From contig JBEQLE010000075.1 of assembly GCA_040326155.1 (NCBI GenBank), forward strand, positions 1 to 19,643: DNA of 19,643 nt. The letters are read 5' to 3'. The notes beneath the pieces were generated by a model. The model saw only the letters and a program-made list of their open reading frames with translations. It made no database searches and was not told the origin of the DNA. Below are positions 9,923 to 17,447 of the stretch, in pieces (position 1 is the first letter of the stretch; each line of letters opens with the position of its first letter). Source of the DNA: Leptospirales bacterium (lineage in GTDB: Bacteria > Spirochaetota > Leptospiria > Turneriellales > JAOUFE01). The position numbers and the translations under genes were made by a program.

Positions 9923-10351
9923 ATGCAAAGCGCACATAATGAATATCATATGAACCAAATAGAAACCGCTGACCCGAAGCAGTTAGTGATAATGCTTTAT
10001 GATGGAGCCGGAAGGTTTCTCGAAAGAGCCGCAGCTGAAATTGATAATTTTAAAAAATACGATAATGTAAATACGAATATTCTGAAAGCCCAGGATATTA
10101 TAACTGAACTCATGTTATCACTCGATATGGAACAAGGCGGGGAGATCGCCGACAATTTGCTAAACTTATACGCCTTCATGAAAAAAGAACTTCTCGAAGC
10201 GAATATGAAAAAAGAGAAAGGTGGCATCGTCCAGGTAATTAAAATGCTAGACGATTTGAAAGAGGCATGGGTAAAAATGGAACCGGGCTCTGAAGTCAAA
10301 AAAGAGGCTCCACCAGAAAGACCGAAAGGCGGGTTTGTCGCCCAGGGTTAA
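9923..10351 (+). CDS. fliS: Flagellin export chaperone FliS
   Basis: IETADPKQLVIMLYDGA, KAQDIITELMLSLDMEQGGEIADNLLNLY, LKEAW; RBS AGGAG. Confidence 0.97.
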   Translation: MQSAHNEYHMNQIETADPKQLVIMLYDGAGRFLERAAAEIDNFKKYDNVNTNILKAQDIITELMLSLDMEQGGEIADNLLNLYAFMKKELLEANMKKEKGGIVQVIKMLDDLKEAWVKMEPGSEVKKEAPPERPKGGFVAQG

Positions 10352-10895: not shown

Positions 10896-12437
10896 ATGGT
10901 TGATTCAATTACAGCTCAAATGAGGCATGCGGATAATTCTGCTGATATATCGTCAGGTGATTTATTATATACGAAACCTGACTCAGAGCAGTTATATTAT
11001 CTTCAAAATATACATTTGCTGGAATTGCAAAATTCCGTTGTTGCTCTTAAAATAAATAATTCGGCTTTTTTTGAACTTGAAAAAGAAGCTCTTGCCCTTC
11101 TTAATGCTTTTTATTCGGAACAAGAAAAATACGACACATTGCAATCTAAACTGATTCCGATAACACGTAATTTTATTATAAAGTTTGTACATCAAAAAAG
11201 CGGTATTTCTTACGAAAATTTAAATGAAACTTTCGATGAACTTGTCTCTTTGGGGTTAATTGGCGAAAACCCTGAAAAAGTTTTGGCAACCCCGCAACTT
11301 CTGGAGCCTGCCGTATCGAACCTGGTTTTAATTTTAGCAGGCAAATGTAATCTGGCATGCAGTTATTGTTACGCTGATAAAGGATCTTTTCAGGGACCGG
11401 AGTCTTTGATGGAAGAAAAAACAGCATACAAGGCGGTGGATTTTTTAATTGAAAATTCCGATGTCGAACCATCTATCCATATTAATTTTTTTGGTGGTGA
11501 GCCGCTATTGAACTTTCCGGTTTTGAAATCTACGGTTGCTTATGCTAAAAAAAGAGCTGCTGTTGCAAAAAAAATGATATCTTTTTCTGTAACTACAAAT
11601 TCCACTTTGCTGAATGAAAAAGCCGGTGAATTTTTTTCTCGCGAAAATATTTCCATTTCTACAAGTCTTGATGGATCTGCCACTTTGCATGATGCAAATA
11701 GAAAATATCCATCCGGAAAAGGTTCATTTGAAGACGCAAAAAATAATATTCTATCCTGTAAAAAAAATTACCCCGAATTAAAAATTGGCGTTCGGGTAAC
11801 ACTGACGAAAGAAGAGATCTCTTTAAAGCGCCGGTTATTCGATCTTCTTGAACTTGGTTTTTCCGAAGTAGGGTTTTCCCCTGTTTCAAGCGCTGACCCG
11901 AACATAGCATTTTCTGATTTGGAGTACGCTGAATTTACCAGTCAATTTGAAGAGTTAATTACTCTTTATATAGAAACGGCACTGCAAGATCAACTTCTGC
12001 CCGTATCGAATATTTCAAATTTTTTAAGTTATTTGCATGATGGAATCGTAAAGAATTTTCCATGTGGCGGAGCTATTGGACTAATGGGAGTAAACCCGGG
12101 TGGCGAGCTGTTTTTATGCCATCGTCTAATTGGCCAATCCGAATATGCGTTGGGTAACATTTATGATGGTATCGACCGGACAAAACAAGCGCAGATCATA
12201 GAGAGTACCGCAGTGGGTAATAAACAAGGTTGTACTAATTGCTGGGCAAAACATTTTTGCGGTGGTGGGTGTCATTATGAAGTTCATTTGCAAAATGACA
12301 ATATTTCGGCAACCCCTTTGGAAAATTGCAAATGGTTTCAATCATGGGCTAAAACTTTAATCGAAGCATATGTCATTATTATGAATAAAAATCCGCAATT
12401 TATCGATCGTTATATAGATCAAAAATCATTATGTTAA
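10896..12437 (+). CDS. qhpD: Radical SAM/SPASM peptide maturase, QhpD-like (513 aa)
   Basis: CNLACSYC, FFGGEPL, SPASM cysteines FPCGGAIG..LCHR..CTNCWAKHFCGGGCHYE..C, QhpD-like tail W..IEAYVIIMNKNPQFI, RRE-like N-terminus (IHLLEL..INNSAFFEL); adjacent to a QhpC-like precursor. Confidence 0.85.
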   Translation: MVDSITAQMRHADNSADISSGDLLYTKPDSEQLYYLQNIHLLELQNSVVALKINNSAFFELEKEALALLNAFYSEQEKYDTLQSKLIPITRNFIIKFVHQKSGISYENLNETFDELVSLGLIGENPEKVLATPQLLEPAVSNLVLILAGKCNLACSYCYADKGSFQGPESLMEEKTAYKAVDFLIENSDVEPSIHINFFGGEPLLNFPVLKSTVAYAKKRAAVAKKMISFSVTTNSTLLNEKAGEFFSRENISISTSLDGSATLHDANRKYPSGKGSFEDAKNNILSCKKNYPELKIGVRVTLTKEEISLKRRLFDLLELGFSEVGFSPVSSADPNIAFSDLEYAEFTSQFEELITLYIETALQDQLLPVSNISNFLSYLHDGIVKNFPCGGAIGLMGVNPGGELFLCHRLIGQSEYALGNIYDGIDRTKQAQIIESTAVGNKQGCTNCWAKHFCGGGCHYEVHLQNDNISATPLENCKWFQSWAKTLIEAYVIIMNKNPQFIDRYIDQKSLC

Positions 12438-12446
12438 GGAGTGTTT

Positions 12447-13169
12447 ATGGCACAGGAAGTAGCAACAGTTAAAATCTTTCCCTACGAGCAAACTTTACCA
12501 CCGGGTTCCAATTCGGTCGATGTAAATACGGACCCGATGTTTGGCGTTGCACGTATTGGAGATAAAAGACCAACCGGGTATAGAACAAGCATTACTCCGG
12601 CCGATACGTTTCCAAACCGGGCGCCCAGAATACCCTGCCAGTTTGTTTTAGTCGGTTTCGATTCAACCGGGGCAAAAATCAGCGGCGGCGACATACTAGA
12701 CGGTATACTTTTTAATGGCGCAAAACTGCCCAACGGTAACACCGTGAAGGTTGACTGGAGCGCTACAATAAGCAATGGCAAATGGGATAGTTATATTATT
12801 CCAGATATGCGACAACCAGCCGTAGACCTTACCGAGTCGTGCGTCGCCGGAGACCCCCCAACTTCGGCGCTTGGATACTTTATTGATGATACAGGACAAA
12901 TGATGCCAGGCAATGATGGCATACTCCAGTTTCTAACAACTGGTCCCACGCCACAATATCCTGAAGCGTTGAGAAGTTCAGATTTTGGATACACGAATGA
13001 TTTTAACACTGATCGTTGTGGAGACGGTTTTGTAAAGGCCGATTATTCCGAAATAGTTACAGGCGGGGGCAGTTCAAATTCGAAACCCCAGGTTCAAATT
13101 AAATCGGTACTCACTCAGCCGGACTGGGCTGTAACTTTATACCAACCCAAAGGGTGGAATCTGCCGTAA
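12447..13169 (+). CDS. Stand-alone protein resembling domain IV of quinohemoprotein amine dehydrogenase alpha subunit (240 aa, no heme motif, no signal peptide)
   Basis: Colinear motifs VKIFP..VARIG..PRIPCQF..G.D..VDWS..IDDTGQMMPG..GPTP..NTDRCGDGFVKA..VLTQPDW..LP match the remembered QhpA C-terminal pattern (VKVxP..ARIG..PK...F..W.V..DG.FxPG..GPNP..TNNxGNL.V.A..IVTVQRW..P). AAGGAG at 12436-12441 favours ATG 12447. Confidence 0.7.
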   Translation: MAQEVATVKIFPYEQTLPPGSNSVDVNTDPMFGVARIGDKRPTGYRTSITPADTFPNRAPRIPCQFVLVGFDSTGAKISGGDILDGILFNGAKLPNGNTVKVDWSATISNGKWDSYIIPDMRQPAVDLTESCVAGDPPTSALGYFIDDTGQMMPGNDGILQFLTTGPTPQYPEALRSSDFGYTNDFNTDRCGDGFVKADYSEIVTGGGSSNSKPQVQIKSVLTQPDWAVTLYQPKGWNLP

Positions 13170-13201
13170 ATTATTCAGAAGATTTGTGATAGGAGAAATG
13201 T

Positions 13202-14815
13202 ATGAAACAAGTTAAGCCATTAAATAAAAAAGCTTTGGCTATTGCCGAAGAAGATACACCCGACGTGTTCGCCTGCGCGCCAATACCTAAACCGGATTGC
13301 ACCAGTAATTATGCACCCGGCATTGAAGTGTCGTCTGCCACATCGTCTACCGACCAGAATGCCAGTACAAAAGGGTTATGTTCTCCCTTTCTTAGAGATA
13401 CTATGATTTGTAGCTGTAGTTACTGGCCTTCACAAGATCCCGATTTAACAGTGCAAGAGACCGCTTCAAAATGGAGAAATGGTATGGGTCACGGGCAAGG
13501 TCATGGCGTTAACTCGCAAGAGCTTCGATTTGTCTACCCTACCGATCCTAAAAGCGATCCGAATCGCGCTTATGGCAACGGCAAAGATTCCTGGGATAAA
13601 AATGTTCCTTCGGATATAAACGAAATTATGATTAAAGATAATTGGGCCGATACTGGGTCCGTACCGACTTCGGGAAATACATGGACCAGTCCCGATATCT
13701 GGTTGCGCTACAACAACGAACCGGAAAGTAATTTTCCTGATCCGAATCTTAATTATCATCAGGGTAATCCGATTGTAAATAGAAATAATTATTTGTATGC
13801 GAGGGTACGTAATACCGGGCAGCATGTTATTGATCAGGTTTATGTAAAATTTTATGCAGGTCTTACAAGTACCAACCCTAGCGGTATTTTAGTCGGGCAT
13901 GGAATGGTTCGAGAGATGGCCGCTCAAAGTGTTGCCGTTGTAAAATCGATAAAACCCTGGGCTCCAAATGTCACGGGACATGGGTGTATACGGGTTATTA
14001 TCGATTCTACTCAAGACCCGGTAAAATTGCTGGGCTCGCCGCCAAATTTTAATTCTTACAATCAATTACTGGGACCCCAGTTTCAAGATGTATCCGTCGC
14101 TTATGATAATAATGTCGCACAACTTAACCTGAGCATTATTACGGTCATTCCGGGATGGGCGGGGATACCTTTTGATTTTGTGATCATGCCGAAAATTCCC
14201 CCGATTATCGATGATATTGAATGGCCTCCCCGTCCTTTGCCCGAGCCTGATCCGAATCCTGAGTGGCATAAAATAATTCTGGAAAGGCCACTGGCTCTAT
14301 CGCGACTAAAACTTGAAACAGCCCCGGTTGCAAAACATTTGCAAGCTTATAAACGGCCGTTCAAATTTTCCATATCGAAATTGTTTGAAGTACTTTACCA
14401 GTTGTTCTTGCCGATTCTAAGTTGGGTTTCGCCATCCTTGACGAACCATCGCAAGCGATTGATCACTTACATGCCTACGGAAAAAGACAGACCGGTAAAG
14501 CATAGTTTAATGATTAACCTGGACCGAGTTGCTCATGATGATCAGTATATGGATCACTCCTTTGTGATTAAACAAGCTTTCAAAGGAAAAACATTGGGTG
14601 GTATAACGGTAAGAATGAATGTTACTCATCCCAGTCTTGTCAGGTATATCGCAGACACCGATACGAAGGTCGCTCACTTTTTTAAATGCCCTGAGATTAA
14701 GCAAATACCGGATAATCGTAAAAGAGGTTTTGATGATCCGAATGAGGCGTTGGCTGCCGGGTATGCCGTGCATGATCGTTGCGATATTTTGTTGGCAAGA
14801 CGTAAGGGTGAATAG
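13202..14815 (+). CDS. QhpC-like (CTQ/ranthipeptide precursor) N-terminal domain fused to an Ig/CARDB-like domain, Pro-rich linker and C-terminal Ada-type metal-binding domain (537 aa)
   Basis: Leader MKQVKPLNKKA; core CTSNYAPGIEV, LCSPFLRD, CSCSYWPSQDPD, ELRFVYP; then WTSPDIWLR..YLYARVRNTG..GHGC..DNNVAQLN; terminal YIADTDTKVAHFFKC..EALAAGYAVHDRC; RBS AGGAG. Confidence 0.82.
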   Translation: MKQVKPLNKKALAIAEEDTPDVFACAPIPKPDCTSNYAPGIEVSSATSSTDQNASTKGLCSPFLRDTMICSCSYWPSQDPDLTVQETASKWRNGMGHGQGHGVNSQELRFVYPTDPKSDPNRAYGNGKDSWDKNVPSDINEIMIKDNWADTGSVPTSGNTWTSPDIWLRYNNEPESNFPDPNLNYHQGNPIVNRNNYLYARVRNTGQHVIDQVYVKFYAGLTSTNPSGILVGHGMVREMAAQSVAVVKSIKPWAPNVTGHGCIRVIIDSTQDPVKLLGSPPNFNSYNQLLGPQFQDVSVAYDNNVAQLNLSIITVIPGWAGIPFDFVIMPKIPPIIDDIEWPPRPLPEPDPNPEWHKIILERPLALSRLKLETAPVAKHLQAYKRPFKFSISKLFEVLYQLFLPILSWVSPSLTNHRKRLITYMPTEKDRPVKHSLMINLDRVAHDDQYMDHSFVIKQAFKGKTLGGITVRMNVTHPSLVRYIADTDTKVAHFFKCPEIKQIPDNRKRGFDDPNEALAAGYAVHDRCDILLARRKGE

Positions 14816-14836
14816 TTATCCGGTAGAACAGTATTC

Positions 14837-15691
14837 ATGAGAGTCTATTTTGGTTCGGAGTTCTGTGAATATTTAATTCCGTCTAAACGGGAATTGATAA
14901 ATGCTCATGAAAAAAGCCTGAGCGATGGATTTGACTTTACGTTTGTTACCCCTCCTGTAACCGATACGGGAGTTGAAAAACTACAGGTTTTGTTTGAATA
15001 CCTTGATTCTGTTGAAATGGAAATTGAGGTAGTAGCAAATGATTGGGGTGTAGTGACTTTGGCTTCCCGGTTCGAATTTTTGCAGCCTGTTATGGGACGA
15101 TTGTTAAACAAAATGTTGCGCGAACCGCGATTTAACACGATGTATAAAAACTCCGAGGTGCCAAAGGCGCCTCTTAAGATATTTCAAAATTCAGGAATAA
15201 GCAGTAATTTCATGGAAATTATAAAGAGATATCGTATAAAGAGAATCGAACTTGATAATCTTTACCAGGGGTTCGGCGAAGATTTGAATTTACATGGACT
15301 TGACGCATCGGTTTATTTACCTTATGGGTACATCGCATCAGGTCGAATGTGTTATTATGCAGCTGTTGGACGCCCTACCGAAGTTCGGTTTTTATACGGG
15401 CGTGAGTGCCAAAAACAATGTATTGGTAATAGTGCAACAATGGTATCGGAGAAGACCGCAGATTTAAATAACATTATACAAAAAGGTAACACGGTATTTT
15501 ACAAACAGGATAAAACAATGATCGACAAAGCTCTTCAATGGATAAAAAACAATCGTGCAAGAGTTGTTATTTTTGAAGACCCCATAGAGTTGCCTGCAAA
15601 AGCATTTGAAAATATCGAAGATGCTGAAGCTTGTCTCAGCAGGACATTCGAAAATCAGAGAAATATATTTAGCAAGTCATATGAAAATTAA
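14837..15691 (+). CDS. Divergent U32-family-like protein (284 aa), probable partner subunit
   Basis: RVYFGSEFCE, FTFVTP, EVVANDWG, GRLLNK, RIELDN, YGYIASGRMC..ECQKQC..KGNTVF: U32/UbiV-like barrel pattern with candidate Fe-S cysteines; overlaps the next U32 gene. Confidence 0.65.
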   Translation: MRVYFGSEFCEYLIPSKRELINAHEKSLSDGFDFTFVTPPVTDTGVEKLQVLFEYLDSVEMEIEVVANDWGVVTLASRFEFLQPVMGRLLNKMLREPRFNTMYKNSEVPKAPLKIFQNSGISSNFMEIIKRYRIKRIELDNLYQGFGEDLNLHGLDASVYLPYGYIASGRMCYYAAVGRPTEVRFLYGRECQKQCIGNSATMVSEKTADLNNIIQKGNTVFYKQDKTMIDKALQWIKNNRARVVIFEDPIELPAKAFENIEDAEACLSRTFENQRNIFSKSYEN

Positions 15692-16688
15692 CACGCCTGT
15701 TAACCATCCTGATGAAGTCGCCGCATTGGTAGAAGCCGGGTCTGATGAATTTTACTGTGGTTATAACCCGGAAGATTGGTCTGAAAAATTCAGTTTCGCG
15801 GTATGGATGAACCGTCGAGGTCCCGGTCCGGCAAATATCAGTAAATTTGAAGACCTGCAATCCATAATTGAACAGGCTGCACAGGCAAGACGAAAAGTCA
15901 TGGTGACCATGAATGCGCCGACGTATACCGACGAACAAAGAGATTTTTTAAAAAATTTAGTAGACTCTATTTTATCGATTGGCGGCGCCGGATTTATTTT
16001 ATCGGACATTGCTCTAATGCAATGGGTGGCGACAACACACCCCCAGGCACAAGTTATCGTTAGTTCTTTGGCTGCTGTTACAAATTGCGCCTCTGCACGG
16101 TTTTATCAAGACTCCGGAGCCTCCAGAATTATACTGCCGCGCCAATTGTCGATTTCTGAAATATTGCATATGAAGAAAAACCTGCCCGGACTCGAACTTG
16201 AAGCATTTGTCATGAATGACGGTTGCGTATATGAGGAGAGCTTTTGCAGCACCACTCATGCGATTGGGGCTTTTTGTCAGGACAAATGGAAATACACCAA
16301 TCACTGCTCGAATGAAAGTGGAACAAATAAAATTTCGGAAAAGTTGTTTCAAGATGCCATTGACGACTATCAAAAAAGAATCTGGTATTTAAGTAACTGT
16401 GGGAACACCCAGGCAGAAAACGGGGCACCCAACGGGCCATGCGGCTTATGCGCGATGTATGACTTTCATGAGGCGGGCGTGGAGTATCTGAAAGTTGTTG
16501 GCAGGGAAGCCACAACACACCGTAAAATAAAAAGCGTAGAAATGACTCACTCCGTATTACAAAAAATACAGATCGGGGCGGACAAGATGCAAACCTCAGA
16601 GTTTGCAAAAAGTTTACGTAATTTTGGCGAGGGGTGTCAAAATGGTTATATGTGCTATTATCGTGAACCAGCGACAGCGATGTCTTGA
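15681..16688 (+). CDS. U32 family Fe-S protein (335 aa), probable O2-independent hydroxylase
   Basis: EAGSDEFYCG, RIILPRQLSISEI, LEAFVMNDGCVYEESFC (C-x6-C), FCQ, CGLC, LKVVGRE; ATG 15681 overlaps the upstream stop (15689-15691). Confidence 0.88.
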   Translation: MKINTPVNHPDEVAALVEAGSDEFYCGYNPEDWSEKFSFAVWMNRRGPGPANISKFEDLQSIIEQAAQARRKVMVTMNAPTYTDEQRDFLKNLVDSILSIGGAGFILSDIALMQWVATTHPQAQVIVSSLAAVTNCASARFYQDSGASRIILPRQLSISEILHMKKNLPGLELEAFVMNDGCVYEESFCSTTHAIGAFCQDKWKYTNHCSNESGTNKISEKLFQDAIDDYQKRIWYLSNCGNTQAENGAPNGPCGLCAMYDFHEAGVEYLKVVGREATTHRKIKSVEMTHSVLQKIQIGADKMQTSEFAKSLRNFGEGCQNGYMCYYREPATAMS

Positions 16689-16697
16689 TGTCAGAAA

Positions 16698-17447
16698 ATG
16701 GGAATTTTACATTTAGAAAGTTTACGTAGAACTGGCGCGACCGGAAAAGGCGTCAAGGTTGCGGTTGTGGACAGCGGAATCAACGGAACTCACCCTCATA
16801 TAGGTGGTATAGCCGGAGGAATTAGAATTGCAGTTGATGAGAATAAAAATATTTATACGGACGCAAAGCATACCGGGGATGAAATTGGTCATGGAACGGC
16901 ATGCGCCGCTCTGATACGTCTAAAAGCTCCTGGTGTATCACTGCACAGTATAAAAATATTTGAAAACTCATTATCGACATATACTCAGGTTTTGATCTAT
17001 GCCCTCTCCTGGTGTATTGAGGAATCCTTCGATATTATCAATCTAAGCCTTGGCAGTAAAGGTAACCGTCATGCAGACTCCCTGCATAAAGTGTGTCGCC
17101 AGGCCGCCGAAAAAAATATACTTATTGTATCTTCACTGCCGCCTCTGTCGCAAAGTTTACCGGGTCTTTACCCAGAAGTGCTTGGCGTATGTTCAGACGA
17201 GAAATGTGGTTTCGATGATATTCTCCCGGATGATTTGGAAAACTTTAATTGTCGCGCTTCGGGGAACCCCAGGCCACTGCCGGGTCTGCCGGTTCAAATG
17301 AATTTTAAAGGTGACAGTTTGGCTTGTGCCCATGTCACAGGTTTTATGGCCTTGCTAAAAGAACAACAAAAAGGCATCCGATGGAAAACATTGTCTGAAA
17401 CATTGAAAGCTTACTTTGCTAAAGATTTTAATGAGCTTCAGCTGTAA
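16698..17447 (+). CDS. qhpE: Small cytoplasmic subtilisin-like (S8) leader peptidase, QhpE-like (249 aa)
   Basis: Triad VAVVDSG, GHGTACA, GDSLACAHVTG; IINLSLG; no signal or propeptide; IVSSLPP..PGLYPEVLGVCSDEKC resembles the QhpE-type segment. Confidence 0.8.
   Translation: MGILHLESLRRTGATGKGVKVAVVDSGINGTHPHIGGIAGGIRIAVDENKNIYTDAKHTGDEIGHGTACAALIRLKAPGVSLHSIKIFENSLSTYTQVLIYALSWCIEESFDIINLSLGSKGNRHADSLHKVCRQAAEKNILIVSSLPPLSQSLPGLYPEVLGVCSDEKCGFDDILPDDLENFNCRASGNPRPLPGLPVQMNFKGDSLACAHVTGFMALLKEQQKGIRWKTLSETLKAYFAKDFNELQL

Follow-up and report, generated by a model that had tools for sequence, protein, structure and literature searches.

A stand-alone 240-residue beta-sandwich protein remotely homologous to domain IV of the quinohemoprotein amine dehydrogenase alpha subunit, encoded in a heme-less six-gene cassette

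The gene analysed here (hereafter the target) lies on the forward strand of a 19,643-nucleotide stretch of DNA from a Leptospirales bacterium (contig JBEQLE010000075.1 of assembly GCA_040326155.1), and this whole stretch is referred to as the window. Fold comparison, profile comparison and gene context together supported the view that the target protein is a remote homologue of domain IV of QhpA, the alpha subunit of quinohemoprotein amine dehydrogenase (QHNDH), and the N-terminal domain of the oxidases LodA and GoxA matched its predicted fold about equally well. Based on these results, we consider that there is a slightly better than even chance that the target protein is a permanent structural partner of a crosslinked cysteine tryptophylquinone (CTQ) module in a heme-less enzyme. 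The gene and its ribosome-binding site are as follows.

12447-13169, + strand: target gene, encoding a stand-alone protein of 240 amino acids (aa) with a predicted beta-sandwich fold, remotely homologous to QHNDH alpha domain IV and to the N-terminal domain of LodA/GoxA
12436-12441, + strand: ribosome-binding site AAGGAG of the target, five bases ahead of the ATG at 12447 and overlapping the TAA stop (12435-12437) of the preceding radical S-adenosylmethionine (SAM) gene

The target open reading frame (ORF) runs from the ATG at 12447 to a TAA stop at 13167-13169 on the + strand, and its product has 240 aa. A mechanically compiled ORF list gave a longer frame starting with GTG at 12441; since all six close homologues begin with MAQEV or MVQEV, 12447 was taken as the start. 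When 5.8 billion proteins were searched by word index, 375 candidates were returned, seven of them with E ≤ 0.01 (the target itself and these six homologues); the six were 49-58% identical to the target over 100% of its length. An exhaustive phmmer search of 1.84 billion representatives yielded six proteins at E ≤ 0.001, namely the target itself, three true distant relatives (P0008 to P0010) and two repeat proteins. The last two (P0011 and P0012; E 4e-4 and 8e-4) were judged spurious matches to repeat or fibronectin-type proteins and were excluded from the alignment of the target family, which comprised 10 sequences (alignment A2). The target ORF is a real, conserved gene, and its family is rare, with nine relatives found. 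The protein contains three cysteines only (C64, C132 and C191) and no CxxCH motif, and its N-terminus lacks hydrophobic character (Kyte-Doolittle means of 15-residue windows starting at residues 1-20 reached 0.19 at most). A preliminary description of this DNA, made from the letters alone, had given the protein 240 aa, neither CxxCH nor a signal peptide, and a ribosome-binding site overlapping the radical SAM stop, all of which was confirmed. A scan for promoters and terminators gave counts no different from those in shuffled sequences.

Sequence profiles were built for each QhpA domain. Two genes from plasmid records served as the QhpA sources, with domain borders defined by Pfam; 120 QhpA proteins were gathered by protein search, and 113 of them (at least 480 aa) were aligned, each domain being cut out separately. 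When A2 was compared with domain IV by hhalign, the probability was 85.9% (E 5.3e-6) over 104 colinear columns, or 136 columns when the alignment was extended, and the extended alignment placed residues 4-226 of the target across all 138 positions of domain IV. The probabilities for domains I, II and III were 0.1%, 0.6% and 0.2%, respectively. Among the controls, 20 column-shuffled domain IV profiles reached 2.7% at most (E at least 0.017), and the reversed profile reached 0.4%. Six insertions in the target family relative to domain IV (residues ca. 12-29, 40-57, 88-99, 108-122, 136-144 and 159-183) explain its ca. 100 extra residues. The preliminary description had claimed a colinear similarity interrupted by several insertions, confined within QhpA to the last domain, and had named a profile comparison with domain IV as a check; the hhalign results bear out this claim. 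Three motifs could be paired by eye, with GVARIG, IPCQF and IDDTGxxxPG of the target corresponding to TIARIGG, VPAQF and IDDTGLFTPA of domain IV, as seen in the following row.

Motif row: target, IDDTGQMMPGNDG; QhpA domain IV, IDDTGLFTPADAG

BLASTP of the target against two QhpA proteins gave short patches only (E ≥ 0.04), of which the patch PRIPCQFVLVGF, paired with PK(V/T)PAQF, falls within domain IV in both proteins. With the Pfam model of domain IV (PF09100, Qn_am_d_aIV), these two proteins, which are true QhpA, scored 174-184 bits. When the profile of the target family was searched against the PDB, residues ca. 165-227 matched penicillopepsin (E 0.047) and aspergillopepsin (E 0.17). A kinship with pepsins was rejected, and the matches were ascribed to chance: the aligned segments do not follow one another in the order and at the distances of a pepsin lobe, and the invariant I-D-x-x-G of the family (IDDTG in the target) aligns with IDDTG of QhpA domain IV.

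An AlphaFold2 model of the target, predicted from A2, was a beta-sandwich with a mean predicted local distance difference test score (pLDDT) of 80.7 and a predicted template modelling score (pTM) of 0.79. This model was aligned, without a prefilter, to 48,161 representative PDB chains. Only three chains reached Z ≥ 8, and these were the following (rmsd, root-mean-square deviation).

1pby_A, residues 352-487 (QhpA domain IV): Z 9.7, rmsd 3.8 Å, 125 residues aligned, 20% identity
2ymw_A, residues 2-255 (LodA): Z 8.8, 154 residues aligned, 19% identity
6byw_B (GoxA): Z 8.4, 162 residues aligned, 22% identity

The fourth-best chain was an Ig-like domain of a phage tail tube with Z 6.7. The predicted fold thus had its best match, of all 48,161 chains, in domain IV itself, where the preliminary description had allowed that a structural match might be lacking. 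A Foldseek search of the PDB with the same model placed LodA and GoxA first (E 2.6e-4 and up), followed by 1jju_A and 1jmx_A. After the Foldseek list was re-aligned with VIA-align, Z was 9.6 for 1jju_A (rmsd 3.8 Å, 125 residues aligned, 20% identity, residues 352-487) and 8.7 for 1jmx_A (22% identity, residues 364-493), and it reached 9.6 among the GoxA entries and 9.4 among the LodA entries; across the fold searches, LodA and GoxA were aligned over 151-169 residues with 17-22% identity. Ranks 1 to 16 of the re-aligned list (Z 8.2-9.6) were occupied exclusively by entries of the QHNDH alpha subunit, GoxA and LodA, after which Z fell to 6.5. In the ESM Atlas, the scores for the target were 0.82 at most, and the Atlas's own model of the target was poor (pLDDT 0.34), so that nothing can be read from this comparison. 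The known CTQ enzyme families are QHNDH, LodA and GoxA (PMC7876137, PMC11951088). Since the LodA/GoxA N-terminal domain and domain IV matched the fold to a similar degree, the beta-sandwich domain predicted for the target is not specific to QhpA and, going by this model, is common to all solved CTQ enzymes. By the same comparison, a homologous domain may be common to the QHNDH alpha subunit and the LodA-like oxidases. In the preliminary description, kinship had been seen with QhpA only; the homology to domain IV stood, but the equally good match to LodA and GoxA had been missed.

Six closely spaced genes on the + strand, at 10896-17447 of the window, form a cassette in which the target comes second. 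The order of this six-gene cassette was kept in all three loci with readable context: the window, a contig of a Nitrospinota metagenome-assembled genome (MAG; locus L002) and a metagenome contig (locus L003). The target homologue at L002 has 50% identity, and its gene overlaps the gene of the gamma-subunit fusion described below by 16 bases; the homologue at L003 has 31% identity, and the target lies between the QhpD-like and QhpC-like genes there too. The other five genes of the window cassette are listed below.

10896-12437, + strand: QhpD-like radical SAM/SPASM maturase, 513 aa (TIGR03906 quino_hemo_SAM, 346.5 bits, cut-off 453; Pfam Radical_SAM)
13202-14815, + strand: 537-aa protein with an N-terminal QhpC-like (gamma) module and an extension of ca. 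420 aa (NF037958, 29.6 bits, cut-off 50; PF08992, 20.7 bits, cut-off 25)
14837-15691, + strand: protein of 284 aa without a named family, carrying four invariant cysteines; candidate for a UbiV-like iron-sulphur (Fe-S) partner of the U32 protein
15678-16688, + strand: U32 protein, 336 aa, UbiU-like over its full length (PF01136, 117 bits; NF047963 UbiU, 84 bits over model positions 3-328 of 331, cut-off 440)
16698-17447, + strand: QhpE-like subtilisin-type protease, 249 aa (NF049966 QH_SP, 144.3 bits, cut-off 165; Peptidase_S8)

The QhpD-like protein showed 32-37% identity to annotated peaB/qhpD plasmid genes. Upstream of the window cassette lies a flagellar fliS gene (9923-10351). At L002, an extra radical SAM protein of 299 aa with a 4Fe-4S dicluster insert is encoded just upstream of the cassette (1548-2447, + strand), and this gene has no counterpart in the window.

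The profile of the 537-aa family matched gamma chains in the PDB (1jmx_G, E 1.7e-5; 1jju_C, E 8.6e-4), and a search of the genome with the gamma model gave a single match, which was this gene next to the target. All the residues of the gamma subunit that form crosslinks or the cofactor have counterparts in the protein. In the pairs listed below, the Asp and Glu partners of the gamma-subunit cysteines and the numbering of the CTQ residues (C37 and W43) are those that we take to apply to the gamma subunit.

13274-13546, + strand: gamma-like core (ca. residues 25-115 of the 537-aa protein), all eight crosslink and cofactor residues aligned with the gamma subunit
Thioether pair: C33/E43 of the 537-aa protein, C7/E16 of the gamma subunit
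Thioether pair: C60/D66 of the 537-aa protein, C27/D33 of the gamma subunit
Thioether pair: C72/D81 of the 537-aa protein, C41/D49 of the gamma subunit
CTQ: C70 and W75 of the 537-aa protein, C37 and W43 of the gamma subunit

The numbering of the thioether cysteines of the gamma subunit follows PMC11951088. The extension of the 537-aa protein (ca. residues 120-537) gave a weak CARDB match in a Pfam scan and showed 30-34% identity, over a third of the length, to parts of large FTP-domain and M20 peptidase proteins. Its structure neighbours in the Atlas were CARDB-like accessory modules of secreted peptidases with template modelling (TM) scores of 0.54-0.60, which are regarded as a lead only. 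Foldseek matches of the model of the whole 537-aa protein were discarded as meaningless (TM 0.10-0.17, rmsd 14.5-28 Å).

The 284-aa protein belonged to no Pfam or NCBIfam family and had no sequence match in the PDB, and BLASTP detected no significant similarity between it and the neighbouring U32 protein. Its cysteines C10, C172, C191 and C195 were invariant in all three orthologues, and their pattern, CXnCX18CX3C, resembles the Fe-S motif CXnCX12CX3C of UbiV with a different spacing (PMC6747719). Judged from these sequence features, the U32 pair (14837-16688) suggests that the tryptophan of CTQ might be hydroxylated independently of O2. No paper joining UbiU/UbiV with a tryptophylquinone was found among the literature matches listed.

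The host genome, which is 94.7% complete, was searched for the remaining parts of the known CTQ enzymes. Neither the heme-domain model of QhpA (PF09098) nor PF09100 had a match at E ≤ 1, the best match to the QhpB model TIGR03907 had 23.7 bits (cut-off 223) and lay on another contig, and LodA_N (PF17990) and LodA_C (PF18417) had no match at E ≤ 10. Neither a QhpG flavin monooxygenase nor a QhpF ABC exporter was present among the six cassette genes and the flanking ORFs scanned, no genome-wide search having been made for these two. CxxCH occurred in none of the six cassette proteins. The preliminary description had held that the electron acceptor must differ from that of QHNDH, and this view is consistent with the missing CxxCH motifs and the missing PF09098 match. 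Its statement that only domain IV had been kept is apt insofar as the domain-IV-like protein stands alone; the reduction from a full QhpA which this wording implies was not borne out as a direction of evolution.

Among 401 sampled genomes of the phylum, the target-family profile matched one, namely the host genome itself, and the closest homologues of the target came from Nitrospinota MAGs and metagenomes. Because the family is confined to one of the 401 genomes and its nearest relatives belong to another phylum, lateral transfer of the cassette is suggested. PF17990 had no match in the same 401 genomes; PF09100 had none either, but its controls were silent too, so that absence cannot be read from this count.

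A permanent structural role of the target is favoured because a homologous domain is fixed in three mature CTQ enzymes, because the target gene strictly adjoins the only gamma-like gene, and because no other part of an alpha or beta subunit was found. According to this proposal, the gamma-like module of the 537-aa protein would receive three Cys-to-Asp/Glu thioethers from the QhpD-like radical SAM enzyme, the QhpE-like protease would then cut off the leader, and Trp75 would be hydroxylated without O2 by the UbiU/UbiV-like U32 pair, giving CTQ (Cys70-Trp75). The 240-aa protein would pack permanently on the crosslinked module, like domain IV in QHNDH, while the extension of the 537-aa protein may stand in for the missing parts of the alpha and beta subunits. 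The outcome would be a cytoplasmic, heme-less CTQ enzyme that oxidises amines, has no beta-propeller and presumably passes its electrons on to some acceptor that is not a di-heme domain of its own.

The distant relative P0010 (273 aa) bears on this proposal, as it has a C-terminal cupredoxin domain. This domain matched nitrite-reductase-fused cupredoxin (E 2.4e-8), plastocyanin (E 1e-5) and amicyanin (E ca. 3e-4), and its His, Cys and His ligands were aligned, with Glu at the position of the axial Met. The fusion thus favours a role of the target in a working redox enzyme. By analogy, it also suggests that a copper protein may be the electron acceptor in the P0010 lineage.

Several observations weigh against a homologue of domain IV acting as a permanent partner. 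No curated model recognised the protein: the target matched no Pfam family by hmmscan (E ≤ 0.1) and no NCBIfam family, seven members of its family had no Pfam match even at E ≤ 10, the target fell below the gathering threshold of PF09100 (25 bits), and searches of the PDB with the target by phmmer and with a seven-sequence profile gave no true match. An hhalign probability of 86% is suggestive and not decisive by itself, the alignment of the target family is shallow with its 10 sequences, and Z values of 9-10 barely exceed the 7-8 that are typical of unmatched models. For the putative binding of the target to the gamma-like module, what speaks is the gene adjacency in the three loci. The AlphaFold2 model of the 537-aa protein had a pLDDT of 49, and of ca. 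25-35 in the gamma region. A complex prediction of the target with residues 1-130 of the 537-aa protein, run without controls, scored 0.00 and 0.00, which counts neither in favour of binding nor against it. The argument from the cupredoxin fusion is weakened in that P0010 is known as a protein alone, without its locus. In the structure papers of 2001-2002, domain IV of QHNDH is reported to help hold the gamma subunit, which the alpha subunit reportedly cradles. Besides, the tight coupling of the target to the radical SAM gene fits a role in maturation equally well.

Such a role was considered in the form of a chaperone or scaffold that binds the unmodified gamma-like module or its leader during biogenesis, presents it to the maturases and is absent from the finished enzyme. 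The preliminary description had suggested either a minimal gamma-binding scaffold or a chaperone in the making of the cofactor; the homology behind this suggestion is supported, and the function stays putative. The target gene lies between those of the maturase and the precursor, the overlap of its ribosome-binding site with the maturase stop suggests translational coupling, and the rest of the cassette encodes mostly maturation enzymes. According to PMC7876137, QhpCD and QhpCDG complexes form around QhpC in the biogenesis of QHNDH; in the same source, however, QhpD binds QhpC directly without a helper of this kind. In each of the three CTQ enzyme families with solved structures, moreover, the mature protein retains the homologous domain permanently, the cupredoxin fusion of P0010 is better suited to an electron-transfer subunit, and the target model is unlike the known recognition elements of RiPPs (peptides made on the ribosome and modified after translation), its top matches all being beta-sandwiches. 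We therefore regard a chaperone as unlikely.

The match to LodA and GoxA raises the alternative that the target is the counterpart of their N-terminal domain and forms, with the 537-aa protein, a CTQ oxidase of two chains, which would reduce O2 to give H2O2 and need no separate redox partner. The fit of LodA and GoxA to the target model is about as good as that of domain IV and extends over more residues (151-169 versus 125), and both enzymes are heme-less like the cassette. By sequence, however, the CTQ module of the cassette is QhpC-like and has three thioether pairs, which to our knowledge LodA and GoxA lack. Neither the LodA_N nor the LodA_C model found a match in the genome at the threshold given above, and an O2-independent U32 hydroxylase pair would be odd beside an obligate oxidase. 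The CTQ of LodA and GoxA is made with the flavoprotein LodB or GoxB, according to PMC7876137, and the cassette, unlike those systems, encodes no flavoprotein of this type. A split oxidase thus appears somewhat less probable still than a chaperone. It is very improbable that the target has no more than a common Ig-like or beta-sandwich fold, serves an unrelated function and stands in the cassette incidentally: beta-sandwiches are very common, many Ig-like domains reached Z 5-6.7 against the target model and no curated family model recognises the protein, but the three chains at Z ≥ 8 represented precisely the three CTQ enzyme families, the profile similarity was specific to domain IV and disappeared with shuffled or reversed profiles and with the other beta domains of QhpA, and in all three loci, down to 31% identity, the gene kept its place between a QhpD-like and a QhpC-like neighbour.

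The target and its cassette were compared with the closest known systems. The target shares with domain IV of QhpA/PeaA (1JJU, 1PBY, 1JMX; PF09100) the predicted beta-sandwich fold, a colinear profile, the motifs ARIG, P-x-QF and IDDTG-x3-P, and an encoding gene beside qhpD-, qhpC- and qhpE-like genes. It differs in being a separate protein of 240 aa, without the four-domain, secreted di-heme c layout of QhpA (NCBIfam QH_alpha), in which domain IV comes last in a chain of ca. 510 aa. The gene position differs as well, as the target gene lies between the qhpD and qhpC homologues, while qhpA is upstream of qhpD. P0010 and QhpA both combine a redox domain with a domain-IV-like domain, copper replacing heme in P0010. 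The cupredoxin of P0010 is similar to amicyanin and plastocyanin, but the likeness to the methylamine dehydrogenase/amicyanin system is an analogy only, as the window protein has no cupredoxin. Relative to LodA (2YMW, 3WEU) and GoxA (6BYW and others; PF17990), which are heme-less CTQ enzymes, the predicted fold of the target is of equal rank (Z 8.4-9.6). In those enzymes, the domain is covalently part of the CTQ-bearing chain and carries large insertions (chain ranges 2-507 and 4-683), whereas the CTQ candidates C70 and W75 are located here in the neighbouring protein.

Compared with the qhpADCBEFG(R) operon of Paracoccus and Pseudomonas, the cassette has QhpD-, QhpC- and QhpE-like genes and keeps all the crosslink and CTQ residues of the gamma subunit. 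However, the three proteins all score under the NCBIfam equivalog cut-offs, and the gamma module is fused to ca. 420 further residues. No QhpB above the cut-off and no PF09098 or PF09100 match is found in the genome, and the cassette has the U32 pair in place of an ABC exporter and a QhpG-type flavoprotein. In a literature search that did not extend to the primary structure papers, nothing was found that described a cassette of this kind or connected LodA_N with domain IV.

Only two architectures of CTQ enzymes are known, the periplasmic QHNDH with its three subunits and the LodA/GoxA oxidases with their single chain. The cassette would represent a third, with a free domain-IV-like subunit, a gamma-like module fused to beta-sandwich domains, neither heme nor propeller, no exporter encoded in the cassette, and the flavoprotein replaced by a hydroxylase of an O2-independent type. 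It thereby opens the questions of which protein parts a crosslinked CTQ module requires in order to be held and put to use and whether a tryptophylquinone can be built without oxygen. We tentatively put forward, as a possibility that we hold with some doubt, that the domain-IV-like beta-sandwich is the ancestral and universal partner of the CTQ module, being the last alpha domain in QHNDH, fused before the CTQ domain in LodA/GoxA and a free subunit here, and that the product of the cassette is a minimal CTQ enzyme, cytoplasmic and free of heme, for which the U32 Fe-S pair builds the cofactor without O2. If so, the cassette would connect, in evolution, the two branches of the CTQ enzymes, the dehydrogenase one (QHNDH) and the oxidase one (LodA-like).

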